The position numbers and the translations under genes were made by a program. Shown piece by piece: positions 723-49,246 of a DNA stretch of 64,000 nucleotides. Every line of letters begins with the position of its first letter. The stretch's first letter is position 1. This DNA comes from Squalus acanthias. Its lineage: Eukaryota. The stretch covers positions 6,324,001 to 6,388,000 of the forward strand of contig CM059453.1 of assembly GCA_030390025.1 (NCBI GenBank), read 5' to 3'. The notes beneath the pieces were generated by a model. It was not told where the DNA came from. It searched no databases and saw nothing but the letters and a program-made list of their open reading frames with translations.

Positions 723-1034
723 AAAAGCCAGAGATTTCAGGTTCTGGGGAATTGATCGCTGGACAAACTGCACGATTGACCTGTTCCGTCACGCACAACT
801 GCCCGGATGGCAACCTGAAACTGAAGTGGATTAATTACAATGTGTCCCTTCCTCCCCCAATGGATACTCAAAATGGAGCAGAAATTAAAAATGAAAGTTC
901 AGGTTCTCGGAAAGTTTCATCCGTCATCATCTTCACACCATCATCTGCTCATGACGGGAAAATTCTGGGATGCTCAATTCTAATTGATGGTATCCCAACT
1001 CCTTCAGCACAAAATCTTACCTTGGAGATTGAAG
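723..1034 (+). CDS. Gene A Ig domain 2 exon
   Basis: tag|AAAAGCCA..GAAG|gtaagt; [28 protein letters not shown]. Confidence 0.88.
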
Positions 1035-4000
1035 GTAAGTGTCCTGTCTAAAGTAAACAGATTTATCCTATCGGACAACCGGCTCCAAATTTTCACTTTT
1101 ACCACAAGTAATTTATCAGGGGTTAGAACTGCATCAACGGATGCATCATGAAAAGCTCAGCCTCTGTACCAGGAGAGCTCACTTCGATAATCAATGGTTC
1201 GGAATGGCTCTCATCTAATTCTCATCAGTCAGATTACATTAGAAACATTCATATCCATGAATCAATGATGCTGCCTCCAACAGATATTTTAATGTGATTG
1301 TTAATCTTTATTCTATGAACTTCCAGTCAGGTTCTGAGTTTAGTCAGTCATAAATGGAAGAAACAAAGGCCATGCCGAGTTACGATCTGAAGCTCGGACA
1401 CCAGATCTCAGCTCTGGTTGGGCTTAATAAAAACTTAAGATTTAGGAAAATGACTTCGCCATACGGCCCATTCGAGCCTGCACCGCCACTCCGGCAAACT
1501 TGTCTGATCATCGAACTCAACACCAATTTCCCGTCCGATCCCCATACCCAATACAATGAATTAATGAAGAACTCAATTATGCTTATTCGACAATCACGTT
1601 TTGCATTAACGCCTGTTTCAGATGGACTGGAAATCCCAACCGTCAACTCCTCTATAGTAGCTGTGGAAGGAAGTTCATTATTATTATACTGCACGGCCTG
1701 TGGGAAACCCCTGGTCAGTTTAAGATTTGTGAAAAATGGTGAAGAGATGAGCAAATCATCCACCGGTGAACTAAAGCAGTTATTCCCCAGCATTCGTTCT
1801 GAAGACGACGGTGAATATTGGTGCATAGCTGAAAATGCTGTGGGCACCAAAAACCGCTCCACACAGATTTCTGTACAATGTAAGTATGCATGAATCTTCA
1901 ATTAGATAGTAGCCTTTCATTTCAAGAATTCTGCATTAAATTCCAATTTTCTCTTGCCTGCTTGCTGGAAGGCCCCCGTGTGCATGAGTTCTGGATAGTT
2001 TCACCACTTCCCGAGGAAATAGCGGCACACTACCTCGATGGATCCAATAATGTAAACTACCCTGGCATCTCGCTCAGTATGACAGGAGTGGAAACTGGCA
2101 CAATGTCTCATAAATGCAGCAGGTCTTATATTTATGAGGTGACGACAAGGCCACATTTACTGGGAACTTTACTCAACATCTAATTGTTAATAAATTATAC
2201 TCGTAGTCTGAAGTAAACAATTTTCCAATCCTTAGAACTGACATGCAGAAATTTGATGAGCAGAAGTTCTGCAAAACAACTGTGATAAAATGGTGTTAAG
2301 CCAACTTCTGTTAATTGTATTAATGTTGTGTTAACAGTGTAATATTCCGAGACAAGGTACTTTGAGCTGTCGCCTTGTTAGCCGAACATTTATTGAAGAA
2401 TCACTTCAGTCCAACACAAACGAAGATGTTGAAAACAGTACACAAAGTGAAGAAATTGAAATTAATTGACCCGTTAAAATAGTGACGGGTGAATCACGTT
2501 TGTGGGTATATTATAGATAATTAACACGCTGAGCTTGCTCCGTCTGAGGAACCGCCCACAATATCTGTCAGGACAGGTCTGGTTGGACTGAACACCAATT
2601 AGTTTTAAAATGAAATTGTTCCTAACGAGCTCACCTGTTATAAGTGAAAATATAATGAGCCATCAACTGGTGCAACATATGCTGCTTCATCTTAAAATAT
2701 ATCTACCAGAACTATTATGCTAACTTCAACTCATGAATTAATTGTACTTCGACACTGCAACTACTTACATGAGCATTTACTATTGAAGTTTCCATTTTTT
2801 TTCGATAAACCCACAATCTTAGCAGGCCCGACATGCACCAATTCTGTGAATTGGACGAATTGTAGCTGCCGGATCAGAGCCAACCCCCCGGGAAACATCA
2901 CGTGGAGCCTCAATGGGAGAATCCTCACTGGGGACAGGTCAGATGCGGAAATCAGCTCCAGGGCGGTGAATAGTCACCTCATGGAGAGCTCCCTGAGATT
3001 GACTCACTCAACAGGAACTGGACAAATGATCTCATGTGTTGCAGCAAATGAGCACGGTGATTCTGTCAGTAAATACCAGCTCCACTCTGAGGGTACATGT
3101 TTAATCTATCTTTAATGTAAAACTATAAGCGAGTTCTTCCATCATGATCAGTCACTAACTGAACGGTGTTAGTGTCTGCAAATACTAGCAACATTCAGCA
3201 GAAATCTATCTCAAATTAGTGTAAGGACCTACTTTAATCAGTGGTCAATCACCAACTGAAAGGTGAGGTCGGCATTATCCATTTTAACTTTCATTCTTCG
3301 GCAACTTGTTCGGTTTATATTTTCAAGATAAGTTGACATTATCTGAGCACCAGAAATAGCCAATGATCTTGGAAAACAAATTCTTCTGAATTAAGATAAA
3401 CCCTTTAGAAAATCCGAAATTATCTCAATACATGATAGCAAACTGAAATCTACCCTTTTGTAGCTACATTCTCATTTCTATCTTGTTCAGACGCATTGGT
3501 GTATGTAGAGCCGATATTCAATAGCCTAAGCAAAATTGAATTACCGCTATAGACTATAAAACTTACCGCTGCAACTGGTGACCTTGCCGGGCCTGAATTC
3601 CGCTCACATTAAGTCCACTGTTTTTCCTAGGGTGGGTTGTGGAGTGAACTTAATTTGTCAATTGAGATTTTTTCATCAGTGAATCTTAATTTATTAATTG
3701 CAATTCATGCCAGGCCGCAACACAGGAATAAAATGCTTTTACGCAAGGATCATCAGGTTGAGACAAGTGGAGTACATAATTTACCATTAGCTTTCTGATC
3801 CGAACAAAAAGGAAACTTGCTTCATCACACTTTTAAGTGTGCTTCCAAGATTGTTGTTTTACCCCAAATTCCTAATATAGAGCAATGTTATCCAACATTT
3901 TAGGAATAATCTCCAGGACAATCTTCCTCATAATAGGAGGAGGAACCATTGGGCTTGTTATTCTAATTGCAGTCGTACTCACGCTGAAAATAAAAAGGTA

Positions 4001-7000
4001 GGTGTGATTATTCATTATACAGAATTAAGTTTCAAAGGAAAACTGCATCAGAACGTCCGTGTATCAAAATCTCCTTTAAATTAAACTCCCATGAGTACAG
4101 TGGGCATCAGCCTAAACTGGTGCGTAAAGTAGGAAGGCCAATCATCCCTGACCAGTCGCTCGCATCTCCAAGCATCAAATACAGAGTAATATTAGTGTCT
4201 GCTTGAATCAGGCTGTCTGTACATTCTTCCTGTTATGTTCCTGGGGTCTGTTTTCTTCTGTTTAAAGTGGACATTTTTGGACTTCTGATCGCTGGCGCTC
4301 TTTGTGCCAGGGAGGGTTTACATTTCCCGTGCAATCTGGATAAAGTTTTCAGCATGCTCAAATATTGGGCATACAAGCCCTTTCAGTTTTTTTCTGCTGC
4401 TGGTTTCATGAGGCGCCCTCACACGAGCCTCCTTGTCATGACTGACTCTCAGCATAACACTACACCAGATTGACACTTAACTTCTATCAATCAAGCTAGT
4501 CCAGCAAACAGTAAAACAACAAGCAAATAGTAAAATAAACGTGACACATATGTTTACAGTAGTTGTTAAGTTTGTTTGGCTCAAGGAGTAAAACATTATA
4601 TTTCAAAATTGGGTGTGAGTGATGTGCTAAAATATGATATTAGCAGTTATTTATGTTGCGCTTGTTATCTTAATCTTACCAGTGATTTCATTTATTTGGA
4701 CTGACTAGCTCTCTTTGAAAGCTTTAGAAAGACTCGCTGCTTCTAATAGACAGGCTGATAATTTTCTTCAGAATTGTGACCGGCTCCAACTGAATTCAAA
4801 TAACACTGAGTTAGGTTTACAATCTGCTGCCAATGAAATTTGTCCTTCGACCGATCGGACAGGATGTTTACAATTGAAATCTATGACGTTACTTATCGGA
4901 TAGGCGCCGCCCCTCAACAGCCAATTTATCGACAACAACCGCAACAACATGAGCCAGAACACTCTTGTGAGTGGTGCTAGCTTTTAACCCTTCATGTAGC
5001 ATGATATATTTAAATAAGGCAATTCCATGTTTACTAATATCAACTAAGCAATGATCGCAAAATGATTGATGAGGAATATAGATGTATTCCTAATTTCTAA
5101 CTCCAATGTGTTGAAGTGGTCTACCTAATAATAGAAAGGACTGCGTTGACAAATTGAAACAATTGCATCTGCAATTGCCCTGTTTGAAATCATTAATAAA
5201 CCTCCCACTGACCGTTATTTATCACAATCAACTTTCACCTTGAGCAATCAGCACCGTATCATTAACGTATATTAATGCCAATCATAGATAAAGTAAAATG
5301 TTCCCTTTTGAAATGCTGGCTGGTGGAAATTGAAAAGAATTGGGTTGCGGATCTGGTCTGTGCTAATCGGGAGATGTAAAAGACACAAGGTGCCACTTAA
5401 AAGGTTATTACATAACATTAGGGCTCATGGGGTTGGGTTAATATACTTGCATGGATAGAGGATTGGTTGACAGGGAGAAAACAGAGAGTAGGTATAAACG
5501 GATCTTTTTCAGGTTGGCAGGCTACAGCTAGTGGGGTGCCGCAATGATCAGTGTTGAGGCCTCAGCTATTTACAATCTATATTAATGATCTAGATGAAGG
5601 GACCGAGTGTAATGTATCCAATTTTGTTGATGATACAAAGCTAGGTGGGACAGTAAGCTGTGAGTAGAAGACAAAGGGGTAAAAATTCACTTGGTTGCGC
5701 CTCCCGTTAGCGCCGTAAGAGGGCGCTAATGGGGCGCAAAGCCGCTAACGCCCGGGCGCAGCGATGTTTGCGCCGCTCGAGAACTTAACTTGAGATTGTG
5801 CGGCGGCGCTAAAACTTACCGCTGCGACCACCTGCGCGCGCAGATTGTGACGTCATTCCATGGTGCAACGCCCTTGTGGCGCCCCGTAGCGGAAATTGAG
5901 TGGCGCCCCCTGCCTTACCGCCTGGCGCTTCCAATGACCAGAAGACTGGAACGCTATCAATCGCTGTGGGGCTGGGGGGGCGCTATTTAAAGGGGGCCTC
6001 TTCCTGTCTTTTATTGTTGGTGGCATTTTTGAACTACGCATTCTGAGAGAGAGAGGGAGAGACTTCTGGAGAGATTCAACGTTGTGTGAAGGAGTTTTGG
6101 GTACTGAGCAGTACTTTGCAGGTTCCTTTTGATTTGCCATTCCTTGTATCGATTTAGCAGAGACTGTGGGAGCTGCACTCTGAGCTCTTTGCCTGGTACT
6201 CTCCATTGTTCTTTCCAGCACATTTGATGTGCAAGTCTCTCCAGGCCGAGATTCAAGGCAGCAATGAACAGGATGTGGATGGAAAGCAAGATTAACCATC
6301 CCCTTTAAGAACTGGCCCGTGCCATTGTGTGTGTGTTCCATTGCTGACTGACATTACATGAGCTTCGCCAGCGCTCCTAGTTAGCGCCTCACTGCTCGGC
6401 CTTTGTGCCTTAAGAGAGGTGTGCAGCGCCTGCTTTAGCGCTCCACTCACCTCCCGGGGCGGTAAAAGTGAAGTTTCCTGTCAGTGCCGATAATTAGCGC
6501 CAGGTGCTAATATTTGCGTCCGGACGATATTTGCGCCCCAAATGGGGCGCGACCTAATTTCTACCCCCAAGAGTCTGCTAAGGTATATAGATAGACTAAC
6601 CTTCACTTACCTAGCGCACGAGCCATTGTGCTGTGGGCTCGCATGTGATACCAGTCCTGGTTCTCCTCCAGCTGCAGGTGTGCCGTGCTTGCGTATCCCA
6701 GGGGCGCTGTTATTTCGAACCGTGCCCTGGGATCACGTGGGCCATGGAGAGCCAATCGGAGTAGGGAATCTCTATTCATAGATTTGACATGAAGACTTGT
6801 CAAATCTATGAATAGAAATCACTCCCAAAACCGAACTAAAACTTCAAATCAATTAAGAAAAAAAGTAACATTTTAAAAATAACTATAAGTTACATAAATT
6901 AACTATTTTAAACAAAAATTTACATTTTTGAAAACATTAATTGCTGTTTTTAACGGGGCAAAAAATAAACTTTCCTTTCATTAAAGTATTTAAAAAAGAT

Positions 7001-10000
7001 AAACCTGTGGAAAAAAAAAAAAATTGCACTTAATTCATCACTTACCTTATTAAAAGCAGGCCTTGCGCCTGCTCTTTCCACGCGCAGCGGCCAGGGACTT
7101 AGCCACACTTCAAAACCTGTAATAAAAAACGGAAGTTCGCTGCGTGCGCGCTGCCTTTCCGGCGCACGCGTTTTACTTCCGAAACCCTTCATTCAAGGGA
7201 ACGGAAGTTCCGGTTTCCAGCGCATGCGCAGTGCATACTCGAAACCGGCACTTTCGTTGGGTTTGCGGGTGAGCACACAGCGAGTACTCACCCGTGGAGT
7301 CCCGAATTTTTGGCCCAGAGTGGGCTGTTAGGAGGCAGATGGAGAATAATGTAGGGAAATGTGAGGTTATTCACTTTGGTAGAATGAATAGCAAAACAGA
7401 ATATTTTTTAAATGGTGAGTAACTTTGAAATGTTGGTATTCAGAGTGATTTCGCTGTCCTCGTTCAAGAAACACAGAAAGCTAGCATACAGATACAGCAA
7501 GCAATAAGGAAGGCAATGGTATGTTGACCTTTATTGCAAGTGGGTTGGAGTATAAGAGTAAGGAAGTCTTGCTAAAAGTGTACAGGGCCATAGTGAGACC
7601 ACACCTGGAGTACTGTGCTCAGTTTTCTTCTCCTTTTCTAAGGAAGAATATACTTGCCATTAAGGCGATCCAAGGAATGTTCAGTAGGTTCATTCCTGAG
7701 ATGAGAGTGCTGTCCAATGATGAGAGATTGTGAATAATGGGACTGCATTATCTGGAGTTTAGAAGAACGAGAGGTGATCTCTTTGAAACATACACGATTC
7801 TGAAGGGGATTGACAGGCTAGATGCTGACAGGTTGTTTCTCACGACTGGAGTGTCTAGAAAAAGGGGGTATAGTCCCCGGATAAGGGGTAGGCCATTTAA
7901 GACCGAGATGAGGACGACATTCTTCGCTCAGAGGGTTGTGAATCTTTGGAATTCTCTGCCCCAGAGGGCTGTGGCTGCTCAGTCTTTGAGTAAATTCATG
8001 GCTGAGATAGATAGATTTTTGGACTCCAGGGGAATCAAGGGATGTCCGACGGGAAAGTGAGGTTGAGGTCGAAGTTCAGCCATGACCTTATTGAATGGCG
8101 GAAAAGTCTCCAGGGGCCGTATGGCCGACTCCTGCTCCTATTTCTTATTTCTTATGTTCTTAAATCTTTCCTGACCCACTGACGTCCTCATCGCGCAGGC
8201 GCTGTGTGCTTTCACTAAACATACCAGTTAATTAAGTCAAGTGCCTCGTTTGCTTTTGTTATTATTCAGGAAGAAACACGGAGAAGCTGCACGTGTCTCC
8301 GAAGCACACGATGATTTGATGATTTACAGTCGGGTGCAGTACGCACGAAAGGCAGACGTAAGTGATGCAAAGCTGGGCTGACAATTGAAGGATGTTTGAG
8401 GTGCTTTCAAACAGCAATGACTCATAACGTGCAATACCCAACAGATAAACTGGAGTGTCAGAAACTTGTTGACCATTAAGGGAGGATTAACCGCCTCACT
8501 TCGCTAAGAGTGAAACCTAGCTACAGACTATACGTGTAGTGACCGACTAAATCCAATTAGGGAGCATTTCTCACCTTGGAGTTCCTTCAAAAGACACATT
8601 CTTAATATAAGAATGCGTTTCCAATGTCATCTTACCCCCTACCAATTAGGTCTCATCTGTTAAATGCCCAACAAGATCACAAAGTGTCAGCGACCCAGAG
8701 GGGATAATCGTTGCCATTCCTCAGGTTTATGTGCAACTTCCGAGTTGCATCTTGCTGCCGATGTGGGCCCCGTGTTCCCCACCTTTGGGTAAGAAGGTTG
8801 TGGCTTCAGGCTTCGCTCCAGCATTTGAACCTATAATCTGGGCTGATACTTCACTTCAACACTGAAGGTCTGCAGCATTGCCGGATGACCCGTCCTTTCG
8901 ATTAGATGTTAAACGAGTCCCCGTTTGTTTCCTCCTATGGAGGGAAACGATCATATGGTCCTATTGTGGGGTCGGATGAGAGGTGTCCCAGTGCCCTTGC
9001 TAACATTTTTCCCTCAATGAACACCAGCTAAAACAGATTAATTCGCCATTCACCCAATTAACTGGTTGCTGCATTTTTCCTACAATAGCGGCAGGAATTC
9101 TAAAGTTATTATTTGCATAGCAGCGCTTCGGTCTTAATAATCACAGAATCATACAGCCCAGAAGGAAGCCATTCAGCCCATGGTGCCTGACCTGGCTGTT
9201 TGAAAGAGCTAAATAATTAGTCACACTACACTGCTTTTTCCCCTTAGCCCTGATTTAATGTTTTTTTTCATATTCACGCATATATCAATTTTCCCTTTGA
9301 AAGTCACGATTGAATCTGCTGCCACCGCCCTTTCAGATGTGCATTCCAGATCACAACAACCCGCTGAGTTTAAAAAAAACCTTCTCACCTCTCATTTTGT
9401 TCTTAACTCAAATATCTTCAATCTGTGTTATCTGGTTAGCGAAGCTCCTGCCAGTGGAAACAATCTCTCCTGATTTACTGTATCAAAATTCTGCAGAATT
9501 TGGATCACCAATATCTAATCTCCCTTTATCATTCTCTACACTAAGGAGAACAACTCCAGTTACCCTAGACTTTCCGTTTAAGGGCGGTCCCCCATTTCTC
9601 CTATAATTCTAGTAAATTTGCACTGTATGCTCTCTAATGCATTGACATCCTTTTGACAGTGTTATGCAAGAATTGGACACAATACTCCAGCCGGGCATAA
9701 CCACTGATGTGCAAAGATTCAGCGTATCTTCCTTGTTTTCATAATCTGTACCTCAATTTATAAAAACCCGGATCAAGTATGCTATTTAGAAGCCTAGAAT
9801 CATAGATTTTTACAGCACAGAAAGCGACCTTTCGGCCAGTAGTACCTGTGCTGGCTGTTTGAAAGAGGTTCCCAATTTAGTGGCACACCCCAGCCTTATC
9901 GACTCGTTCGAATATACAATTTCACGTTCTTTATTTCTTGCATCAAGACTTAACAACGCTCATTTCATGGATCAGTACCATTAGAAAACTTACAAGTGAT

Positions 10001-10269
10001 AAAATAGTGAGATTTTTTCTGTTGCAGACAGCACTCTCCCATCGCATTCTGCTCCATATCTGCAATAACTCCACATCCAACACAAATACCTTCCGTTACA
10101 GAGGGACCAACAGTGTACAGAGGCTGGTCGTGGCGCCGCACAATCGACTAAACCAGCTCAGACTGACGAGATTGCGTACGCGACCGTCAATGTCTCCAAC
10201 TTCGGCAAACATCATCAATATATTCAAAATGAGGAGACCTGCGAATATGCAGCAATTAAACAGAACTGA
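723..10269 (+). CDS. Gene A: paralogous Siglec-like receptor, 5' end outside the window; join(723..1034,1622..1879,2805..3092,3904..3997,8270..8357,10102..10269); possibly decaying
   Basis: Exon-for-exon match to gene B (312/258/288/94/88/168 nt) with open frames, but the Ig4 acceptor is CG instead of AG and the Ig3 C-strand Trp is Phe. Confidence 0.8.
1622..1879 (+). CDS. Gene A Ig domain 3 exon
   Basis: cag|ATGGA..CAAT|gtaagt; [12 protein letters not shown]. Confidence 0.88.
2805..3092 (+). CDS. Gene A Ig domain 4 exon (canonical acceptor mutated)
   Basis: Homologous to 43399-43686. Preceded by tcg rather than tag; donor G|gtacat is intact. Confidence 0.7.
3904..3997 (+). CDS. Gene A transmembrane exon
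   Basis: tag|GAATA..AAAG|gtaggt; [31 protein letters not shown]. Confidence 0.88.
4904..4966 (+). other. Candidate 63-nt alternative cassette exon with in-frame TGA (gene A)
   Basis: tag|GCGCCG..CTCTT|gtgagt; in phase 2 it reads [16 protein letters not shown]; 61/63 identical to 45200-45262. Confidence 0.55.
5676..6567. mobile_element. MITE-like non-autonomous DNA transposon, specific to copy A
   Basis: Terminal inverted repeats GGGGTAAAAATT / AATTTCTACCCC. The CR1 sequence resumes on both sides and the element is absent from paralogue B. Confidence 0.75.
6600..7317. mobile_element. MITE-like element (CACGTG-GGCC..CCAAT family), specific to copy A
   Basis: Ends GAATTTTTGGCCC, AT-rich core, shares motifs with 10650-11378 and 11873-12617. 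Confidence 0.6.
8270..8357 (+). CDS. Gene A cytoplasmic exon ([29 protein letters not shown])
   Basis: ttcag|G..GAC|gtaagt, 88 nt. Confidence 0.82.
8785..9130 (+). mobile_element. Degenerate DeuSINE
   Basis: Diverged match to 13965-14435. Confidence 0.55.
10102..10269 (+). CDS. Gene A last coding exon with ITIM IAYATV and distal TCEYAAI
   Basis: ttacag|AGGGAC..TGA, 168 nt, phase 0. Confidence 0.88.
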   Translation, partial: RDQQCTEAGRGAAQSTKPAQTDEIAYATVNVSNFGKHHQYIQNEETCEYAAIKQN

Positions 10270-15511: not shown

Positions 15512-17529
15512 NNNNNNNNNNNNNNNNNNNNNNNNNNNNNNNNNNNNNNNNNNNNNNNNNNNNNNNNNNNNNNNNNNNNNNNNNNNNNNNNNNNNNNNNN
15601 NNNNNNNNNNNNNNNNNNNNNNNNNNNNNNNNNNNNNNNNNNTAGTAATCCATTGTGCTATATCTTCAATTACAACCCGCCACAAAAGTGGAGCTATGGA
15701 TTTTCCGTTAATTTGTTTAATATTAATGGACATTCCAATTACAACGGCCGAGCTCATGTTAATAATCTACAACGATGTATTTTCAATGTGCTAATTAGAA
15801 TTCCTATGCTATTCTGACACAGTGATATCACAACACTAGTTTCTCCCTTGTACCGATTCTCAGATTACCATTTCAAGTTGTGTATGTGTTTAGCATTGGT
15901 CAGTTATTTTCACACAATATTAATCTAAGGCTAGTAAATTATTCATGCACAACTATCACACCGCGCCATTTAAAACCATTTGTACATGGTCAAACAATAT
16001 AATTTAAAGGCTCTAAATGTTCCATTTCTTATCGTGCAATCAAAACTCGGTTAATCAAAGAGAAGAATTCCATCTGTATCACTTGAATGAAGCTTTGAGC
16101 TCATCGGTTCTCATTTTGAATATGCATGAATCTATGGACTGCTGCATGTTGGAAATGCAGAACCAGCAATAAACTAATGCGAATATTGTCGATTCTTATT
16201 AATAGTCTTAATTCAGGAAAAGACTGGGTCCAATGGGCAAACATTGCGCTTGGAGGTGTACCTCCAGCGAACGCCTCCGACTGGTGAAAAAAAATATGCA
16301 CCTAACTGATGGCGACGAGGCTGCAAAAACTTGCGGTGTTAGGATGCGAGGCGGAGGGCTGTGAAAGGGCTTTAAGATTCCAGGGAAGTCGGCCTCAGTG
16401 TACCTGGAGTCACGTGGGCCTGGTCCTCCACTCACAAAGCAGAATTCGATTTTAATCATTTCTGAGTGGAATCCCGTAATGAGATGTAATAGAATCCCGA
16501 AATCTAATCTAATTACAATTTACAAAAATTGGAGTTCAGACCGTAATTAGCTTCATTCCACCAATATTTAATTTTTTCATAATAATTTTCAACGTCTTTA
16601 AAAGTCTAATCTGGGACAATATTTGCGGAAACTCATTTTATACAGTGTACGTGGAGAATTTACGATCTTAAAATGTTTCAATCATGCCTGAAAAATCCCC
16701 TTACGCAGATGCACACATACCCTTCGCCTGTGCGCATCAACCTTAAAATTTCCGTGTGCAATTTCTGGCAAGCAATTGCTTTCTCTTGGTCCGTGCGGCT
16801 GTCCTGTCAACACGTAAGCTGACAGACCGCAAAATCCAGAAAGCGCATGCAGAAATCCCGAACTTGCGGTGGATTTCAAAGTAGGAATTGCACCATAACA
16901 AACCCCGCAACACCAACTACAAAATCCGAGCCAGTATAATATATTGTGGCAAAAGTGCAAAGTGAGAGAACGAATCATTACATCGCCTATCTTCAGCAAT
17001 TGAAAACTAACTCAGTGAAATGCGATGGGATATATTTTTGTTGATAGCTTTAAGAGTTTGATATGGAGAGTTTGAGCAGTGCCATGGATAGGGAATAGGA
17101 CAAACATCAAAATGGGTCATCTATAATTCATCGTTAAACTGACAGTAATTCAGAGCGAGGCGACAAAGGCGTGAAACTATTTAAATGTCAAACTTCTGCA
17201 GGAGAGCTGTTGAACTGGGACTGTTGTAAACGTAACTGAGACAAGAGATGCAACGTGTGATGTGTGCATTGGCACCAGCAATGGTCCCTGAAGATTATCT
17301 CCAATTTGTATTCCCACTGAAATCGAAAAGATTTGAAGACAGACCGCAAACCAGACAAAAGTATTGTCTAATGGATCCAATCTAGCAGTTTGCACTGTTT
17401 ATAAATGGGGAAAAGCACAACTAAATATCGGTCATATGCTGAAATCTAACTCAGAGATTCGAATGCCTTATGTGTACATTATCACATATCGAACAAGGAC
17501 TTCGCGATTGGATTCTGATATAATGTTTT

Positions 17530-38163: not shown

Positions 38164-41100
38164 GTACATTTCTGATGCTTTTTTTTACAATTTCTGCAAG
38201 TGATTTATAACTTGTGGGAAAGGAACAGCAAAATAAAGAATATAAATGATTTTGTTGTTGTTAGTTTTAGAACTTGTGAAATAGGAATTTCATGATTGTT
38301 TAACTTGTGCGTTGTTGTTGTATTGTAGCGGGAACAGCCTATTCAAATAATAATTAAATATAGGAATTTTCAAATTATTTTTTATTTTAAAGCACATTTA
38401 ATAAAATTTACTTCATAATGATTGAGTGATTCAAAGGAGATTCAATAGATGTTTAAAATATATTTTGTTCAATATTTTAATGTATATTTAAAGAGCACTT
38501 TTAATGGGCGTTCGCTTACTTGTTAGTGGAAATGTATTCGGTTTTTAAACGGGTATTAAATATGTATATTACAGGTTCATAAATCTCCCATCAAATAGGT
38601 ATTCCTATGACCATTTCAGCAGGTGTTGTGATTGGAATTTATTTAGTATTTTTTCTTGATTTTGAAAAGACCTTCACTGATATTTTAATTGCTATTGTGA
38701 ATGGCGATTATTTGTCAATTAACAAATACTTTAATGGATTCTAAAATGCTGAAATGCATTTTGAATGACTAATTAAAGGGTGTCTATTTTTTTTCTAAGT
38801 TGTTTTTAGTGCTGCATTCTCTGTGATGATACCAAAAGTTATGTCGGCGGTGGCCGGTTCATGTGCAGAGATCCGGTGTACGTTTGATTATCCAGTCTAT
38901 CAGAGAATCACTGATGTGAGGTGGTTAAAGAGGAACCCTGTTCCTGCTATCCCAGGCTTCTCCATTCTCTATGATTCTAAAGATCCATACATGCAGCATT
39001 ATAACTATGGTGGAAGAGCTGAGTTCACGGGCAACATTGCAAAGCAACAATGTTCCCTCCTGCTAAATGATATCAGGAAGAGTGATGAGGGCACATACCA
39101 ATTCAGCATGGAGATCGCTTTGGACAGAAATTTTGGTAGACTTCGGACTCTGCGTGCTGACGTCTTTCTTTCTGTTTTAGGTGAGTTTTCTCTTTGTTCC
39201 TTTTGTACATTTTCACTCCAGTGCTTCAGTATGATTCAACCTATGTGCAAAGTGGGCAAATATTATAACGTCCCTGACCGATCTCAAAGGGTAGTTGAAA
39301 CATAGGATGCAGGGATACTGATAAGGGTCGCAGATGTCTGATATCCTAAACACAGAGGTATATAAAAATTACAACATTAAAATAGGCCGTTCGGCCCAGC
39401 CAGTCCGTGTTGCTGTTTATCCTTCACATGAGCAACACTCCGAATCGGAATTGCCTGGTCAGTTCCCATAACCCTTCATTGCAATTCCCTTCAAACACCT
39501 GTCGAGCCTATTCTGAAAATGTCCACATGAGGATAGATTAGTACTTGTTGACTGAACCTAAAACTAACGTTGTTGGTCGTACATACAATATATAAACCAG
39601 CAGCTCATTATTTCCAGTGAAATGAAAGGGAATGAAACTAAAGCGTTTGCTAAAATGGGTGATCTGTCTGGAATGAGAAATTTGACCAGGGCGGCCATTT
39701 CAAATTCTACTTCAGTCTCCTTCTATGTCCTCTGTCCCGTTGCCTAATAAGTTTAAGCACTTCAGTCAAATTATCATTAAATCAGTTTTAAACTCATAAG
39801 ATCTTCACTAATTTTTAAATATTTTCTTGTTATTTAAACTTCCTCATACCGGCCAGAATCTACGCGAATCCGCCGTAAATTCTTCCGATAGAGTGGAGCC
39901 CAATACCCGCATTCTGACTCCAACTGTGAACTAACTCCTGTACGCATCAGAACCTCCACTAATCTCGTATTTATATGATTGATCTCTTGCCATTAAACCC
40001 AGAACTCTAGAAACATCTTCATACACTTTCCCACTGGAGCTGCTACTTTTACTGTCTCATGAACCTGACCCCAAATTCCTCTGCTCTTCCACATCTCCCA
40101 GCTTCCAACGGTTCAAATGAACTTCTATGACCTCATATTTTCTGACCTTTAATTATATCTGCCTCTTATGTCCACAATCTACTATATCTACAGTATCCGT
40201 TTGAAACTCGCTTTATTTCTCTTGTTATATCCTGGGAGTTGTACTTGCAAGGTTGGCATATGTGTCAAACTGGCGATATTGGATGTGCCTCTCATTGTAC
40301 ACCCCGCCCAATTTTCATTTTGGTGGAATCCAATTAATTCCTGTTGGAAATTTTGAAATCACTCTCTTTAACGCCATCTCCAAATTATTGATATACACAG
40401 TGAGTAGAAGCAATTCCACAGCACAACCCTCTGGGACACCGTACTGGGATCCAACTATTCTGAGCAACTGCGCTTAACGGCGACTCGCTGCATCGTCCCT
40501 TCTAAACAGTTTGTATTGCAATTTCTACCTTATCCTTAAATCCAAACCTCTTAATATCTTCTCCAATTATCTCCTGTGTTTACCGTCGGCAATGTCTGTC
40601 TGATTACATTTCAAGTTACTTATTGGTGATGCGTCTTTTGACGTCGCGTAGACTTAAAAAGCGGTGAATTAATGCAGTCTTTGTTCGTGCCTTTCCCGTT
40701 CCAGAGCTCATTTACCCCGCTTTAATTAGATCTTAATTAAAAAGTAGATATTTCAGTAGCGTGAAAATCAGTTCAAGTTATAATTTATGTGTTCATCCAA
40801 ATCCCACGTCAACAAATGTTATTTCTGCTGAAGCCTTCCTCAGATTTACACGTGAGGAACTTGCTCTGCTTCTCCCACACAAGGTGTTGTTACGCGTCCT
40901 TTTTTGGTCTGTCCATGTCTTGAGTATTGCCGTTCTATATTGAGGTTTCTTGACTACAGAATCGAGATCTCTCTGGGTCTGCATTAATCGCCATCACATA
41001 GATCAGTGCAGGTGCAGAACGAGGTATATGAGTGGATGACATATTCGTGAGATTTGAGTAGTTAACGTTGATTCAAATTCTAGCTTGCAAAATTTGTTCA

Positions 41101-44100
41101 CTGAACAATATCCATGATACAAATAATTTAGGAGAAAAACGACAAATAGTTAAGTAAGTTGGGCCATATGTTACCCGATGAAGCATAAAACTACATTTCA
41201 ACTGCGAGGAGTAATTCAGAATGGTGAACACACTTGCAGCACGTAGCAGAGAAAAATGAACAAAATGTGATTTTCTTGTTGATTCAGATTTATTTGGAAG
41301 CCATCACTCGCCCGTTCTAACATTGAACTGTACCTAACACGCTGGTCTTCTCCCGTTTTCATAGACAAGCCGGAGATTTCAGGTTATGGGGAATTGATCG
41401 CTGGACAAACAGCACGACTGACCTGTTCCATCACACACAACTGCCCGAATGGCAACCTGCAAGTGAAGTGGATTAATTACAATGTGCCCCTTCCTCCCCC
41501 AATGGTTACTCAAGATGGAGCAGAAATTAGCAATGAAAATTCAGGTTCCCGAACAGTTTCATCCGTGATCACATTTACACCATCATCTGCTCATCACGGG
41601 AAAATTCTGGGATGCACAATTCTAATTCATGGTATCCCAACACCTTCACGACAAAATCTTACCTTGAAGATTAAATGTAAGTGTCCGGTCTAACGTAAAC
41701 AGACTTATTCAGACGGCCAACGGGCTCTAAAGTTATACGTTTACCTGAAGTAATTTATTCGGAGTTAGAATCTCATCAAATAATGCTTCATGAAACGCTC
41801 AGCCCCTGTACCAGGAGAGCTCACTTCGATTATCAATGGTTCGAAATGGCTCTCATCTAATTCTCGTCAGTCAGATTACATTAGGAACATTCACATCCAT
41901 GAATCAATGATGGTGCCTCCAAGAGATTGTTTTTTATGTGATAGTTTATCTTTATTCTAATGAAGCAACAAAGGCCATGCCGTGTTAAGATCTGCAGCTA
42001 TGACAGCAGATATCAGCTCTGGTTGGGCTTAATAAAAACACAAGTATTAGGAACAGGAGTAGGCCATACGGACCTTCGAGCTTGCTCCGCCTCTACACCA
42101 AACATGGCTCGTCGTCGAACTAAACTCGAATTTCCCGCCCGATCCCCAGACCCAATATAATGAATAAATTAGGAGCTCAATTATGCTTATTCGGCAATCA
42201 CGTTTTGCATTAACGCCTGTTTCAGATGGACTGGAAATCCCAACCGTCAACTCCTCTATAGTAGCTGCGGAAGGAAGTTCATTATTATTATACTGCACGA
42301 CCTGGGGTATACCCCAGGTCAGTTTAAGATGGGTGAAAAATGGTGAAGAGATCAGCAGGTCTTCCACTGGTGAACTTAAGCATATATTCCACAACATTCG
42401 TTCTGAGGACGACGGTGAATATTGGTGCATAGCGGAAAATGCCCTGGGCACCACAAACCGCTCCACACAGATTTCAGTACAATGTAAGTATGTATTAAAA
42501 TATCAATTAAGTAGTAGCTTTTCATTTCACGAACTCTGGATTAAATTCCAATGTCCTCTTGCCTGCTTGCTTGAAGGCGCCCATGTGCATGAGTTCGGGA
42601 TATTTTAACCCCTTCCCGCGGAAATAGCGGCAAACTACCTCGATGGCTCCAATAATGGAAACTAACCTGGCATCTCGCTCAGTATGACAGTAGTGGAATA
42701 TGGCACAATGTCTCCTAAATGCAGCATGTCTTATATTTATGCAGTTGCGACAGGAGCACATTTACTGGGACCTTTAATCTACAACTAATTGTACAAAAAT
42801 AATACACGTAGCCTAAAATAAACAATTTTCCAATCATTTGAAAGGACTTGCAGCAATTTGATGAGCACAAATTCTCTTGAAAAAAATCTAATAAAATGGT
42901 GTTAAGCCAATTCCTGTTACTTGTATTAATTTTGAGCTAATAGTGTAATATTCTCCAGACTTGGTTCTTTGAAGTGTCGCCTTGTTTATTGAAGAATCAC
43001 GTCAGTCCAAAACAAATGAAGATGTTTAAAACAGTACACAAATTGAAGATATTGACATGAATTGATATTTTAAAACAGTGACGGATGAGACACGTTTGTG
43101 GGTATATTATACATAATCAAATCTCTGAGCTAGCTCCGTCTGAGCGTCCTCACAACATCTGTCAGGAGAGGTATTGACGGACTTAACACTCGTTGGATTT
43201 AATATGGACTTGTTCCTAACAAGCTCACCTGTTATAAGTGAAGATATAATAAGCCACGAACTGGTGTAACATAGGCTGTTTCATCCTAAAATATAACAAC
43301 CAGAACTATTATGATTAGTTCAACTCATTACTTAATTGTATTTCGACAGTACAACTGTTTACATGATAATTTCCTAATGAAATTTTCATTTTTTTTAGAT
43401 AAACCCACAATTTTAGCAGGACCGACATGCACCAGCTATGATAATTGGGCGAATTGTAGCTGCCGGATCAGAGCCAATCCCCCGGGAAACATCACGTGGG
43501 GCCTCAATGGGAGAATCCTCACTAGGGACAGGTCAGATGTGGAGGTCATCTCCTGGGCGTGGAATAGTCACCTCATGGAGAGCTCCGTGAGATTTACTCA
43601 CCCAAACGGAACCGGAAAACTGATCTCTTGTGTTGCAGCAAACGAGCACGGTGATTCTGTCAGCAAATACCAGCTCCACTCTAAGGGTACGTGTTTAGTC
43701 TATCTGTAATGTAATACTATAAGGGAGTTGGTCCATCACTGGTCAGTCACTAACTGAAAGGTATTAATGTCAGCAAATACCAGCTACATTCAGCAGGTCC
43801 ATACTGAATCTCACTCGAATTAGTGTAAGGACCTACTTTCATCAGTGGTCAATCACCAACTGAAAGGTGCGGTCGGCATTATCCATTTTAACTTTCAGTC
43901 TTCTGCAACTTGTTCGGTTTATATTTTAAAGATAAGTTGAAAGTATCTGAGCACCAGAAATTGTAAGTGATCTTTGAAAACAAAATCTTCTGAATTAAGA
44001 TAAACCCTTTCGAAAATCCTAAATTATCTCAATACATGATAGCAAACTGCAATCTACCATTTTGTAGCTACATGCTCATTTCTATCTTGTTCAGACTCAT

Positions 44101-47100
44101 TTAGGTATGCAGAGCCGATATTCAATAACCTAAGCAAAATCTGCATTCCGATCAGATTTAGCCCACTGTTTTTCGGAGGGTGGGTTGTGGAGTGAACTTA
44201 ATTTGTCAATTGAGATTTTTACATCAGTTAATCTTCAACTATTAATTCCAATTTACACCAGGGTGCAACACAGGAATAAAAGGTTTTTACGCAAGGATCA
44301 TAAGGTTGAGACAAGTGGAGTACCTAATTTACCACGAGCTTTGAATCCGAGCTTAAAGGAAACTTGCTTCCTCACACTCATAAAAGTGCTTCTAAGATTG
44401 TTGTTTAAACCCAACGTCGTAATGTACATCAATGTTTTTTCCCCCAACATTTCAGGAATATTATCCACAACAATCGTCCTCATAATAGGAGGAGGAGCCA
44501 CAGGGCTTGTTATTCTAATTGCAGTCGTGCTCACGCTGAAGATACAAAGGTATGTGTGATTCTTAATTCGATAGAATTGAATTTTAAAGATGACCCTATA
44601 GGCCAGTGATTGTTTTCACCTCCGGTGTAATCTGGATAAAGTATGCAGCATGCTCAAAGAATAGGCGGAGAATCCCTTTAAGTTTGTTCATGCTGCTAGT
44701 TTTAAGGGGCACCCTCACACGAGCCTGCTTGCCATGTCAAGCTCTAAGGATAGTACTACACAAGAATGATACTTAAATTCTAACAACCAAGCTGGTCCAG
44801 CAAACAGCAAAACAACAAGCAAATAGTAAAAGTAATGTGACACAAATGTTTACAGCACGTGTTAAGTTTGTTTGGCTCCAGGAATAGAAGATTAGATTTC
44901 CAAATTGGATGTGAATGATGTACTAAAGTATGAAACAAGCAATTATATATGTTGCCCTTGTTATCTTATTCTTACCAGTGACTTAAGCTATTTGATCTGA
45001 CTAGCTCTCACTGAAAGCCGCAGACAGACACCCTTCTTTTAAAAGGCAGGCTGATAATTACCTTCAGAATTGTGAACGGCTCCCAGTGAATTCAAATAAC
45101 AACCAGATCGGTTTATAATCTGCTGCCAATCATATTTATCCTTCAACGAATATGCCAGGATGTTTACAATTGAAATCTATGACGTTGCTCCTCGGATAGG
45201 CGCCGCCCCTCAACAGCCAATGTTTCGACAACAACCGCAACAACATGAGCCAGAACACTCTTGTGAGTGTTGCTAGCTTTTCCCCCTTCATGTACCATGA
45301 TATAATTTAATAAGGCAATTCCATGCTTAATAATATGAACTAATCAATGATTGCAAAAAGATTGATGAGGAATATTGATTCATTCCTGATTTCTAACTCC
45401 AATGTGTTGAGGTCGTCTACCTAAAAAAAGGAAGGACTGCGTTGACACATTGAAACACTTGCATCTGCTATTTACCCAGCTTCAAATCATGAATGAACCT
45501 CCCACTGACCGTTATTTATCACACTCAACTTTCACCTAGAGCAATTAGCATCGTGCCGTTAACGTATATCAAAGATAAAGCAAAATGTTCCCTTTTGAAA
45601 TGTTGGCTGATGGAAATTGAAAATAATTGGTTTTCGGATCTGGTCTGTGCTAATCGGGAGAAGTAAAAGCCCAAGGCGCCACATTAAAGGTTAGAACACA
45701 AGATTAGGACTCATGGGGTTGAGGCTAATATAATAGCACAGATATAGGGTTGGATAACGGACAGAAAACAAAGAGTTGGGATAAGCGAATCTTTTTCAGG
45801 TTGGCAGGCTGCAACTAGTGGGGTGCCGCAATGATCAGTGTTTGGGCCGCAGCTATTTACAATCTATATTAATGAACATGCTGAAGGGACCGAGTGCAAT
45901 GTATCCAAGTTTGTTGATACAAAACTTGGTGGTACAGTAAGCTGTGAGGAGAACACAAAGAGTCTGCAAAGAAATAAAGATAGATTAAGTGAGTGGGCAG
46001 TAAGATGGAGTATAATGTAGGGAAATGTTGATGTTCAGAGCGATTTGGCTGTCCTAGTGCAAGAAACACAGAAAGCTTCCATGCAGGTATAGCAAGCAAT
46101 AAGGAAGGCAAATGGCATGTTGGCCTTTATTGCAAGGGGTTTGGAGTAGAAGAGTAAGGAAGTCTTGCTACAAATGTACAGGTAATACCACACCTGGAGT
46201 ACTGTGCACAATTTTCGTCTCCTCTAAGGAAGGATAGATTTGCATTCGTGACAGTGCAACGAAGTTTCATTAGATTGATTCCTGGGATGAAAGGGCTGTC
46301 TTATGGTCAGAGATTGTGTAGAATGGGCCTATTGTCTCTGGAGTTTAGAAGAATGAGAGGTGATCTCTCTGAAACATACAAGATTCTGAATGGGAATGTC
46401 AGGGTAGATGCTGAGAGGTTGTTTTCCCGGGCTGGAGTTTCTGCAACACTGGGAGTTAGTCTCAGGATAAGGCGTCGTCTATTCAAGACCGAGAGGAGGA
46501 GGAATTTCTTCACTCAGAGGGTTGCGAATTTTTGGAATTTCCTGCCTCAGAGGGAATTTTGAGTACTTTCAAGGCCGAGATAAATAAATGTTTGTACTCT
46601 AGGAGAGTCAACGTGTACGGAGATGGGTTGGGAAAGTAAAGTTGTTGTATGTGATCAGTCATGATCTTATTCAATGGCGCAGCAGGCTCGAGTGGCCGTC
46701 TGGCAAACTCCTGCTCCTATTACTTATATTTGTATGTTGTTAAGTCTTTCGTGACCTACTGACGTCCTTCATCGCGCAGGCGCCGTGTCCTTTCACTAAA
46801 TATTCCAGTTAATTATGAGAAGTGCCTAATTTGCATGTTTTTTTGTTCAGAAAGAAACACGGAGATGCTGCACGTGTCTCCGAAACACACGGTGATTTGT
46901 TGATTTACAGTACGGCGCAGAAGGCACTAAACACTGACGTAAGTGACGCCAAGCTGGGCTGCCAATTGTAGGTTGTTTTGTTCGGTCTTAATAATCATAG
47001 AACCAGACAGCCCAAATGGAGCCGTTCAGCCCACGGTGCCTGTGTTGGCTCTTTTAAAGAGCTATCCAATTAGTTACATTACTCTGCTCTTTGACCTTAG

Positions 47101-49246
47101 CCTTGATCTGATTTTTTTTTTCCATATTCACGCGTATATCCAATTCCCTTTTGAAAGTCACTATTGATTCTGCTGCCACGGACCTACAGGCAGCGCATTC
47201 CACATCACAACTCGCTGAGCTAAAAAAAAACTTCTCACCTCTTATTTGGTTCTTGTCCCAAATATCTTCAATCTGTGTCCTCTGGTTAGCGACACTCCTG
47301 ACAGTGGAAACAGTTTCTCCTTAATGTTGGATCAAAATTCTGCAGGAATTTGATCACCAATATCTAATCTCCCTTTAATATTCTCTACACTCAGGACAAC
47401 AACCCCAGTTTCGCTGAACTGTCTGTTTAAGTTCAGTCCCTCATTCCTCCTATAATTATAGTAAATATGCTCTGTATCCTCTCCAATGCATTGACATCCT
47501 TTCGACAGTGTTATGCACAGAATTGGACAGAATACTCCAGCCGAGGCCTAACAACTGATGTATAAATGTTCAGCTTATCTTCGTTGTTTTCTTAATCTGT
47601 AACACAATTTGTAAAAACCCGGATCAAGTCTGCAATTTCGAAGCTTTAGAATTATTTTACAGTACAGAAGGCGAATATTCGGCCCGTTGTACCTGTGCCA
47701 GCTCTCTGAAAAATGTTTCAAATTTAGTCCCACACCCCAGCTTTATCGAGTCGTCCGGATATACAATTGCACGTTCTTTATTTATTGCATCAAGACTTAA
47801 CAACGCACGTCTCATGCATCAGGGCCATTATAAAACTTGCCAGGGATAAAATAGTAAGATTTTTACTGGTGCAGACAGCACACTGCCATTGCATTCGGGT
47901 CCATATTTTTTTTATTCGTTTATGGGACGTGGGCGACGCTGGCAAGGGGCAAGGCCAGCATTTATTGACCATCCCTAAATGCCCTTGAGAATGTGGTGGT
48001 GAGCCGCCTTCTTGAACCGCTGCAGTCCGTGTGGTGAAGGTAGTTCACAGTGCTGTTAGGGAAGTAGTTCCAGGATTTTGACCCAGCGACGATGAAGGAT
48101 CGGCGATATACTTCTAAGTGAGGAGGGGAACTTGGAGGTGGTGGTGTTCCAATAGGCCTGCCGCCCTTGTCCTTCGAGGTGGAAGTGGTCGCGTGTTTGT
48201 TAGGTGCAGCGGAAGGAGCCTTGGCGAGTTGCTGCAGTGCATCTTGTAGATGGTACACACTGCAGCCACGGTACGCCGGTGGTTGAGGGGGTGAATGTTT
48301 ACGGTGCTGGATGGGGTGCCAATCAAGAGGGCTGCTTTGTCCTGGATGGTGTCGAGCTTCTTGAGTGTTGTTGGAGCTGCACTCAACCAGGCAAGTGGAG
48401 AGTATTCCATCACACTCCTGACTTGTGCCTTGCAGATGGCAGAAAGGCTTTGGGGAGTCGGGAGGTGAGACACACGCCACAGAATACCCAGCCTCTGACG
48501 TGCTCTTCTTACCATACATCTGCAATAGCTCTGTTGTGGAGTATTTTAAACCAACACTCGACACAAGGGTTTAGATCGATAGTCAAGTTGTCTTTATTAA
48601 ACCGGTGGGGAAACAGTCTGCTCTGTCCTAGCCAGACTTCTCCAAATTGTAAAAGCAAACACTACATTTTTATACATTACAAAACACATGGCCATCTCAT
48701 GTTCAATTTATTCCTGCCACCTGATTGGATTTTGGCCAGCATACACCTGTATGGATTGGTTCCGAATCTTAATAAAAACATGTATAAGCTGCCTCTTCAA
48801 ACAATCACTCAAACTGAGGAATGCTGATTAAATGATACCTTATTATGCGACCTAGATAATAACGTTCTTACGGGCAGTTGGAATGCTGGACATCCTGTCT
48901 TCATTTTAAATGTTTTCTATCTTTCCAAAGTTCAGCTATCGTTGACCACATCTTTATGGAATTGGCCCTCCATGTTAGCCCCTGCCTTTTTACACTATTC
49001 AGAGAAAGTGCCAGCAATGTGATTTTAACTCTTCCCCCACTGCAGCTCCACATCTAATACAAATGCCTTCCTTTACAGAGAGACCATCAGTGTACAGAGG
49101 CTGGTCATGGCGCCGCTCAATCGACGAAACCAGCTCAGAATGACGAGATTGTGTACGCGACCGTCAATTTCTCAAACTTACGCAAACATGATCAATATAT
49201 TCAAAATGAGGAGTCCTGCAAATATGCAGCAATGAAACATAACTGA
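38121..49246 (+). CDS. Gene B: complete Siglec-like (MAG/CD33-related-like) inhibitory receptor, V-set + 3 C2 Ig + TM + ITIM tail; join(38121..38163,38800..39180,41365..41676,42226..42483,43399..43686,44456..44549,46851..46938,49079..49246)
   Basis: Eight exons with AG/GT boundaries and compatible phases (1,1,1,1,1,2,0) sum to 1632 nt with no internal stop. Siglec Cys pattern in V-set (GSCAEIRC..QQCSL), domain 2 (TCSITHNCP) and domain 4 (GPTC..NCSC). Tail carries IVYATV. Confidence 0.88.
38800..39180 (+). CDS. Gene B exon 2, Siglec-type V-set Ig domain
   Basis: GSCAEIRCTFDYP...W...GRAEFTGNIAKQQCSLLLNDIRKSDEGTYQF; donor G|gtgagt at 39180. The phase-1 acceptor is the AAG at 38797-38799, so the start is less certain. 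Confidence 0.88.
41365..41676 (+). CDS. Gene B exon 3, Ig domain 2 (C2-type)
   Basis: tag|ACAAGCCG..AAAT|gtaagt, 312 nt; LTCSITHNCP..W..ITFTPSSAHHGKILGC. Confidence 0.9.
42226..42483 (+). CDS. Gene B exon 4, Ig domain 3
   Basis: cag|ATGGA..CAAT|gtaagt, 258 nt; [27 protein letters not shown]. Confidence 0.9.
43399..43686 (+). CDS. Gene B exon 5, membrane-proximal Ig domain 4 (C..CxC type)
   Basis: tag|ATAAAC..AAGG|gtacgt, 288 nt; [24 protein letters not shown]. Confidence 0.9.
44456..44549 (+). CDS. Gene B exon 6, transmembrane helix
   Basis: cag|GAATA..AAAG|gtatgt; [31 protein letters not shown], with no charged residue in the helix. Confidence 0.9.
45200..45262 (+). other. Candidate 63-nt alternative cassette exon with in-frame TGA (gene B)
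   Basis: tag|GCGCCG..CTCTT|gtgagt; reads [16 protein letters not shown]. Confidence 0.55.
45670..46740 (+). mobile_element. Degenerate CR1 3' part, shared with copy A (predates the duplication)
   Basis: [20 protein letters not shown]1 tail. Confidence 0.82.
46851..46938 (+). CDS. Gene B exon 7, cytoplasmic (KKHGDAARVSETHGDLLIYSTAQKALNTD)
   Basis: ttcag|A..GAC|gtaagt, 88 nt, phase 2 to 0; paralogous to 8270-8357. Confidence 0.82.
47907..48512 (-). mobile_element. LINE 3' fragment of a distinct CR1/L2-group family, specific to copy B
   Basis: KAQVRSVMEYSPLAW..LNHRRTVAAVCTIYKMH; polyA end; CCATA on both flanks. Confidence 0.8.
48532..49044 (-). mobile_element. Probable solo LTR, specific to copy B
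   Basis: TG..CA termini, imperfect terminal inverted repeat (TGTTGTGG/CCACTGCA), GCTC duplicated on both flanks, absent from copy A. Confidence 0.65.
49079..49246 (+). CDS. Gene B last coding exon with ITIM IVYATV and distal SCKYAAM
   Basis: ttacag|AGAGAC..TGA, 168 nt, the same length as the last exons of A and C. Confidence 0.88.
   Translation, partial: RDHQCTEAGHGAAQSTKPAQNDEIVYATVNFSNLRKHDQYIQNEESCKYAAMKHN

Follow-up and report, generated by a model that had tools for sequence, protein, structure and literature searches.

Gene B and the residue at the sialic acid site

The analyzed stretch, referred to here as the window, comprises 64,000 nucleotides of Squalus acanthias DNA (assembly GCA_030390025.1, contig CM059453.1, positions 6,324,001 to 6,388,000 of the forward strand). 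It contains an intact gene for a receptor of the shape of the sialic acid-binding immunoglobulin (Ig)-like lectins, or Siglecs (gene B), a neighboring paralogue from its C2 exon onward (gene A), and a broken copy from another subfamily (pseudogene C). Gene B was read as eight exons totaling 1632 nt and encoding 543 amino acids, with the only stop at the end and AG/GT borders at all introns. The initial annotation had described an intact frame, intact cysteines, and an ITIM (immunoreceptor tyrosine-based inhibitory motif) in a gene lacking the canonical sialic acid-binding arginine, and the full reading bears this out. The features of gene B are as follows.

38121..38163, + strand: exon 1, signal peptide, with the ATG at 38121 (from the exon model; contigs of two related organisms show the leader-V splice as loose ends at 38797)
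38800..39180, + strand: exon 2, Siglec-type V-set domain with Cys18, Cys23, and Cys81 (numbering of the modeled domain) and no F-strand Cys (from sequence and fold match)
39105..39107, + strand: AGC, Ser99, at the essential-Arg position (sialoadhesin Arg97; from phmmer and the profile)
39123..39155, + strand: FG loop and top of the G strand, D105 to R115, including the conserved Arg112 (CGG, 39144-39146; from the model and codon analysis)
41365..41676, + strand: exon 3, C2-set domain with an extra Cys expected to pair with Cys18 of the V domain (from sequence)
42226..42483, + strand: exon 4, I-set domain, intact in gene B (contigs of relatives join it to both neighbors)
43399..43686, + strand: exon 5, membrane-proximal (fourth) Ig domain (joint 42483-43399, GT..AG; no Pfam match)
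44456..44549, + strand: exon 6, transmembrane segment, hydrophobic core without a charged residue (from sequence)
46851..46938, + strand: exon 7, first cytoplasmic exon (from the exon model)
49079..49246, + strand: exon 8, ITIM IVYATV, distal tyrosine motif CKYAAM, and stop (from sequence)

Gene B thus has a type I membrane layout, with an N-terminal V-set domain, a C2-set domain, and a transmembrane segment. At the sequence level it also shows the Siglec cysteine pattern, the extra C2 cysteine being residue 168 of the full protein, and the three V-domain cysteines (18, 23, and 81) are invariant in 34 of 34 exons of the subfamily. The AlphaFold model of the V domain has a predicted local distance difference test score (pLDDT) of 90, with the F strand at 94-103 and the G strand at 111-122. 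Fold searches with this prediction returned sialoadhesin as the best match (VIA Z 17.6, root mean square deviation 1.7, 111 residues aligned; Foldseek rank 1-2). Contigs from related organisms, which we guess to derive from RNA, join the leader to V, V to C2, C2 to the I-set, and the I-set to the fourth domain at the predicted places or within a few bases of them. These joints appear to back the exon model for the family, and they would represent transcripts of family members rather than gene B's own.

The initial annotation placed a serine in gene B and an isoleucine in pseudogene C at the site of the essential arginine, a claim on which the letters, phmmer, and a profile agree. In translation, gene B reads GTYQFSME at 39090-39113, with the serine codon AGC at 39105-39107, and the minus strand of pseudogene C has ATA (Ile) at 31216-31214, within RD*GDYYFILMN. 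In the phmmer alignment, sialoadhesin NFRFEI (ending at residue 100) faces gene B QFSMEI, so that Ser99 of the V domain corresponds to Arg97, and a profile of 34 paralogues puts the two residues in the same column. According to the available text of PMC8161119 and PMC10122656, this is the residue that binds the carboxylate of sialic acid. An assembly error at 39105-39107 was considered and is very unlikely, because 24 of 91 paralogous V exons have Ser at this site, 22 of them as AGC.

As for the remaining sugar-binding features, gene B retains an aromatic residue on the A strand (Phe3 at the Trp2 column, where the 34 subfamily V exons have F in 21, C in 9, S in 3, and L in 1). The F-strand arginine on which the functional definition of a Siglec relies is replaced by Ser99, and the G-strand aromatic next to the sugar (the Trp106/Tyr127/Trp128 column) is missing, with Leu111 and Arg112 at the two candidate columns. 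Since these two binding-site features are lacking, gene B, which by its sequence is a Siglec in descent and predicted fold, is better called Siglec-like.

Extent and age of the arginine loss

Searching the genome with the V exon of gene B gave 150 matches, mostly within a 2-Mb tandem cluster around the window. The site codon was read in 91 V exons, i.e., 90 fetched loci including genes A and B, plus pseudogene C, with about 15 fragmentary matches left out; haplotype duplicates may account for some of the copies on small contigs. The canonical arginine is missing in 82 of these 91 exons, the residues being Ile (33), Ser (24), Lys (12), Arg (9), Leu (5), Asn (2), Val (2), Thr (2), Phe (1), and Ala (1). 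A tree of the V exons, with the site codon removed, resolves two starred clades and one outlier. Clade I (41 rows, including pseudogene C) has Lys in 12, Ile in 15, Arg in 6, Leu in 5, Val in 2, and Thr in 1, and clade II (49 rows, including genes A and B) has Ser in 24, Ile in 18, Arg in 3, Asn in 2, and Thr and Phe in 1 each. Within clade II, the Ser genes are nested among Ile genes across several starred branches, and the three Arg genes (L026-28) are nested among the Ser genes. The simplest history for this nesting would be a loss of Arg, then Ile, then Ser, and a single regain of Arg.

Because the serine of gene B sits inside an Ile-bearing clade, its codon likely arose from Ile (ATC) to Ser (AGC) and not from AGA to AGC. 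The earlier remark that the codon is one substitution away from AGA is thus correct as to the letters and misleading as to the history. The proposal that gene B itself had switched does not hold either, as 82 of 91 paralogues have the loss and it is older than the divergence of the two big shark groups. The V exon of gene A, whose codon the initial annotation had proposed to read, is found 1.5-1.8 kb ahead of the window and encodes Ser (AGC) as well, so that no change specific to gene B is seen.

Twelve clade I V exons (a subset of L040-L070) have Lys at the Arg column, among them L040, which is clean from V to the transmembrane exon; its lysine could keep some weak anion binding. Further cluster copies are located 6 Mb away on the same contig (G000:C30:178000-326000) and on contigs C240, C3212, C3276, C3493, C3509, C3674, C756, and C152, and these represent either a second cluster or haplotype duplicates.

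Outside Squalus, all six named orthologues of the clade II type lack the arginine: Heterodontus (I, I, I), Pristiophorus (L), and Heptranchias (S, F). Five of the six cluster with gene B on a starred branch (96/93) of a tree that leaves out P0009. Since these Arg-less genera span both major shark groups, the loss is, on these sequences, older than the split of the two. That split dates to about 250-300 million years ago. V domains of the clade I type keep Arg in Heptranchias (3), Mustelus, Chiloscyllium, and rays (4), and all four ray V domains found have Arg and are positioned outside the clade of gene B. In the cross-species tree, rooted near the sialoadhesins, the outgroup does not fall on one clean side, and the clade of gene B is placed among Arg-bearing shark and ray V domains; judged from this placement, the gene B family descends from Siglec-type V domains that had the arginine. 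The tree omits P0009, P0020, P0021, P0037, P0039, P0049, P0052, P0059, P0112, and P0136, which were missed by the motif filter. Of those, P0037 has Arg and may be a basal member that kept it. Two Arg-bearing domains of P0051 fall inside the clade of gene B on a very long branch (1.7), a placement that is probably an artefact.

The closest named relatives of gene B are shark proteins without exception. Public models from Heterodontus, Pristiophorus, and Heptranchias with names of the SIGLEC8/12/13-like or MAG-like kind belong to the orthologous subfamily; their V domains are 46-56% identical to that of gene B and are Arg-less too, and the names are automatic only. The Arg-less clade retains ITIM-type tails in these three genera.

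Other Siglec-like families, located on different contigs of the same genome, served as a control; of their 20 fetched loci, 17 were translated, and 16 of these 17 V domains have Arg. Therefore, the animal retains the canonical site elsewhere, and it is this cluster that gave it up. A second large Siglec-like family that keeps Arg (L191-L210, on contigs C3542, C17, C3, C3426, C1048, and C3486) includes a sialoadhesin-like V domain (L203) and one member with Tyr at the site (L206).

Selection, damage, and paired genes in the cluster

The dN/dS check proposed in the initial annotation was run on the 34 subfamily V exons and detected diversifying selection: model M2a was preferred over M1a (likelihood ratio statistic 30.2, p=2.7e-7), with 26% of sites at an omega (dN/dS) of 2.5. 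The sites above 0.9 are A15, V29, Q31, N42, F50, D105, R106, N107, R110, and L114, which lie mainly in the BC, CC', and FG loops and at the top of the G strand, around the old sugar site. The C2 exon gave no site-selection signal (p=0.69), and the fourth Ig domain gave a weak one (p=0.034, one site). For the membrane-proximal exon as a whole, omega is 0.63 (p=6e-4). In the comparison of gene B with gene A, the V exon has 41.7 replacement and 6.3 silent changes, versus about 72 and 36 in five other exons (Fisher p=0.006).

The integrity of the reading frames was surveyed, at the DNA level, in 62 genes whose V exon had initially appeared open, a selection that biases the V exon only. Downstream exons could be followed in 36 clade II genes; damage affects the C2 exon in none of them, the fourth Ig exon in two, and the transmembrane exon in none of the 35 found. 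The I-set exon, in turn, is damaged or absent in 17 of 36, through 10 distinct lesions. This exon is likely dispensable, with the rest of the frame being kept, because it can be skipped in frame and is lacking from public models of Heterodontus and Chiloscyllium. Lesions in the I-set and not in the C2 or transmembrane exons form a pattern that uniform decay does not explain. Five clade II genes (B, L002, L029, L030, and L035) are clean from V to the last exon, and eight more are clean across the fetched stretch, seven of these with an unbroken match to the last exon. None of these clean genes, neither the five nor the eight, has Arg at the site.

Considering genes with both the transmembrane and the last exon in view, seven members of clade II (L003, L018, L019, L026-28, and L033; stretches L131, L145, L146, L123-L125, and L157/L187) have an arginine near the outer end of the transmembrane segment and are missing the first cytoplasmic exon. 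Their last exon is out of frame, and splicing the transmembrane exon to it would leave a tail of a few residues. By analogy, this is the build of activating partners. The cluster thus contains, in seven genes, what is expected of a paired-receptor system, i.e., siblings with a similar ectodomain, a charged transmembrane residue, and a missing ITIM tail. The transmembrane segment of these siblings recurs in L006 and L014, and L008, L009, and L012 have a transmembrane Arg with the tail probably kept.

The three genes that regained the arginine (L026-28) are all of the activating type and have in common a 1-nt deletion in the I-set exon. An initial view of them as plain pseudogenes was softened, given that this sole ectodomain lesion lies in the exon that is often dead and can be skipped in frame. 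In the six Arg genes of clade I (L044, L046, L050-L052, and L061), the C2 exon is dead: all six have lost its acceptor, four carry a stop, and two show a repeat-like interruption. In the two that were checked, L044 and L050, the tail terminates directly behind an ITIM-like motif, at a stop in the first cytoplasmic exon. Hence, the nine Arg-bearing copies all have a dead ectodomain exon, and none is an undamaged V-C2-ITIM receptor.

The other features of the window are as follows.

723..10269 (approximate ends), + strand: gene A, from the C2 exon to the last exon (from sequence matches)
31141..31519, - strand: pseudogene C, V exon of the other subfamily; ATA (Ile) at 31216-31214, two 1-nt deletions, and two stops (from sequence)
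25623..27467 (approximate ends), - strand: pseudogene C, C2 exon, broken I-set exon, and last exon with a stop (from sequence)

Pseudogene C is broken beyond its V exon, with stops in later exons. In gene A, the acceptor of the membrane-proximal Ig exon (about 2803-2805) is CG and not AG, and in-frame skipping of this exon is possible. Gene B and its nearest paralogue are mosaic: the V exon belongs to the Ser clade, and the transmembrane and last exons (within 44420-49246 in gene B) are 93-96% and 83-93% alike, respectively, to those of a distant Ile subclade (L029-L035), compared with 83% and 80% between gene B and the neighboring gene A. This pattern suggests recombination or conversion between paralogues. 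Decayed retroelements with reverse-transcriptase fragments are found at 59131-61745, 51054-52981, 56965-58724, and 29778-30900, which, by their motifs, look Penelope-like and CR1/L2-like. Runs of N at 15512-15642 and 54470-55118 are both clear of the exons of genes A, B, and C.

Readings of the loss and comparison with known Siglecs

We favor, at a probability of roughly 0.6, the reading that gene B, itself intact, belongs to an old and much-expanded Arg-less subfamily of Siglec-shaped shark proteins and would serve as an inhibitory receptor of the immune system, with a ligand that is not ordinary sialic acid. The initial annotation had suggested a non-sialic ligand, and, by sequence, this is the likeliest reading of an intact ITIM gene whose V exon is under diversifying selection. 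The loop-lined face around the old sugar site would still have a binding partner, most likely some protein surface that is bound or imitated by pathogens. Engagement of this face would lead to phosphorylation of the ITIM and recruitment of phosphatases of the SHP-1/2 type, as is established for the ITIMs of Siglecs. The activating-type siblings would counter pathogens that exploit the inhibitory brake, and it would be the Arg-keeping Siglec-like families in other parts of the genome that sense sialic acid.

Several observations weigh against this reading. The joints that back the exon model come from contigs of relatives that are mostly 80-95% alike. With omega at 1.02 and 0.88 over the whole exon, respectively, neither V nor C2 departs from 1, and purifying selection on both domains is therefore weak. 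Between gene B and its nearest paralogue, the contrast of V with the other exons reaches only p=0.08, and none of the IQ-TREE tests of omega=1 on the framework or loop partitions was significant. In addition, the site test is our own implementation on a single tree and can be inflated by gene conversion, which is evident in the cluster. Many cluster copies are damaged; exon skipping in those genes is inferred, and the joints that were seen include the I-set exon, with none listed that skips it, which speaks neither for nor against skipping. The conserved Arg112, moreover, could still bind an anionic glycan.

This last point leads to another reading, in which the anion-binding guanidinium moved from the F strand to Arg112 on the G strand and gene B still holds sialic acid, sulfate, or some other anionic glycan, only in a pose that is displaced. 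The initial annotation had proposed the Arg-rich segment LDRNFGRLRTLR as an alternative anion site. What remains of this proposal is a possible site at Arg112, conserved in 32 of 34 clade II V exons; the rest of LDRNFGRLRTLR is mostly hypervariable, with D105, R106, N107, R110, and L114 under positive selection. That Arg112 is kept between the selected neighbors 110 and 114, and that clade I has Tyr/Phe at this column, speaks for a displaced site. So do the 11 Arg-less members from outside, in which the column is Arg/Lys in 5 and a Tyr directly precedes it in 6, a tyrosine that would fit the usual Siglec G-strand aromatic. Should it be that aromatic, Arg112 would face Ser99 across the strands, on one side of the sheet with it, where an anion could be held. 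With the C-terminal register of sialoadhesin instead, Arg112 would match the position of the sialoadhesin G-strand Trp (Trp106) and point between the sheets. The model provides strand ranges only (F 94-103, G 111-122) and no register, and in the fold of a construct ending at residue 114 the G strand is unfolded, with pLDDT below 50 for 107-114. Furthermore, 6 of the 11 outside members have no Arg/Lys at the column, and gene B has no aromatic at 111 or 112. G-strand arginines that contact sialic acid are described for Siglec-10 (R127; available text of bioRxiv 10.1101/2025.06.10.658867) and CD22 (R131; available text of PMC7226832). In the same part of the Siglec-10 preprint, however, R127 touches the carboxylate and assists the canonical Arg without replacing it, and R119A abolishes binding in solution despite R127, which therefore weakens this alternative. 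We consider a displaced site unlikely, though worth keeping in sight.

It is also possible that the family is relaxed or dying, with no specific ligand needed (tonic or cis signaling) or with plain decay, gene B being a copy that is not yet broken. An omega near 1 for V and C2, the many pseudogenes and damaged exons, and the ten different residues at the site are what such a history would leave, and a Siglec-10 without its binding arginines still inhibits chimeric antigen receptor (CAR)-T cells, as given in the available part of bioRxiv 10.1101/2025.06.10.658867. However, the lesions spare the C2 and transmembrane exons and concentrate in one skippable exon, the membrane-proximal exon has an omega of 0.63, the three V cysteines are invariant, the selected sites cluster in loops, and Arg-less members of the clade with ITIM-type tails are still present in three further shark genera. 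Taken together, we regard relaxation or decay as improbable. Similarly improbable, in our judgment, is a reading in which the sialic acid arginine acts as a switch tied to signaling type. Here the intact inhibitory receptors examined, all of them Arg-less, would use the relocated G-strand Arg for another anionic ligand, while L026-28 would have re-evolved the arginine (AGC to AGA) to detect sialic acid-cloaked microbes; if true, sialylated pathogen mimics would be unable to press the brake of the Arg-less inhibitory receptors. The regain in L026-28 is a single event and may be due to drift. Finally, a recent switch from Arg to Ser in gene B alone (AGA to AGC), or an assembly error, could draw on AGC being one letter from AGA. 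The Ser found in gene A and 22 more paralogues, its position inside the Ile clade across several starred branches, and the Arg-less orthologues in three genera leave this last option with hardly any credibility.

Among known Siglecs, the V domain of gene B is most similar to sialoadhesin/Siglec-1 (PDB 1qfo) and MAG/Siglec-4 (5lfr), which provide the best sequence match (E 5e-12) and the best folds (Z 17.6 and 16.8). It resembles them in two B-strand cysteines plus one on the E strand with none on the F strand and in the aromatic at the Trp2 column (Phe in gene B). It differs in having Ser for Arg97/Arg118, no G-strand aromatic, four Ig domains, and an FG loop four residues longer than in the sialoadhesins read. 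Whereas sialoadhesin and MAG are each a single conserved gene, the family of gene B has about 90 tandem copies. In the available text of PMC7226832, R118 and Y127/T128 of MAG are conserved from fish to mammals; by its Ser at the Arg column and its lack of a G-strand aromatic, gene B departs from this pattern.

The resemblance to the paired CD33-related Siglecs (Siglec-5/14, -11/16) is one of organization: a fast-evolving tandem cluster, which the cluster of gene B also is, rapid V evolution, an ITIM with a distal tyrosine motif, similar V domains on receptors of both the inhibitory and the activating type, and genes that are mosaic. The shark activating-type transmembrane segment differs in having an arginine near its outer end and not a DAP12-type lysine. 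Such an arginine is found in the FcR-gamma-coupled LILRA, NKp46, GPVI, and FcaRI. A transmembrane Lys is noted for Siglec-15 in the part of PMC7226832 that was available. Siglec-10 (R119 plus the G-strand R127) and Siglec-6 have non-canonical arginines that add to ligand binding, and both keep the canonical Arg, unlike gene B; for Siglec-6, an Arg122-independent pocket and Arg-independent binding are described (available text of PMC10122656). Intact receptor frames without the arginine, as in gene B, are known from human Siglec-XII (R122C) and great-ape Siglec-5/14 (available text of PMC6288428). Those primate losses are recent and affect single genes, whereas the shark loss is common to both major groups, came before the family expanded greatly, and goes along with positive selection on the ligand face.

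The F-strand arginine is treated as the defining conserved residue of Siglecs, with the known losses being these recent single-gene primate events. Our search of the literature for Arg-less shark Siglecs found no paper; subscription journals and supplements were outside its scope, so that absence from print is unproven, and the available portions of PMC8455134 and PMC13262535 touch on Siglecs in passing only, while those of PMC4042635 have no bearing on the matter. What appears to be new is an old, expanded, selected, and paired Arg-less lineage, as known arginine losses are recent or partial, and this loss at the family level is more interesting than the single codon of gene B. The ITIM-bearing shark cluster also contrasts with the statement, in the available text of PMC7226832, that fish lack ITIM-bearing CD33-related Siglecs. 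Automatic names of the "sialic acid-binding lectin" kind are probably misleading for these shark genes. Because variants with Ser, Ile, Lys, and regained Arg occur naturally in the cluster on scaffolds that are nearly identical, the question of the ligand is directly testable. If the favored reading is true, a different ligand was taken on by the Siglec scaffold early in the evolution of jawed vertebrates.

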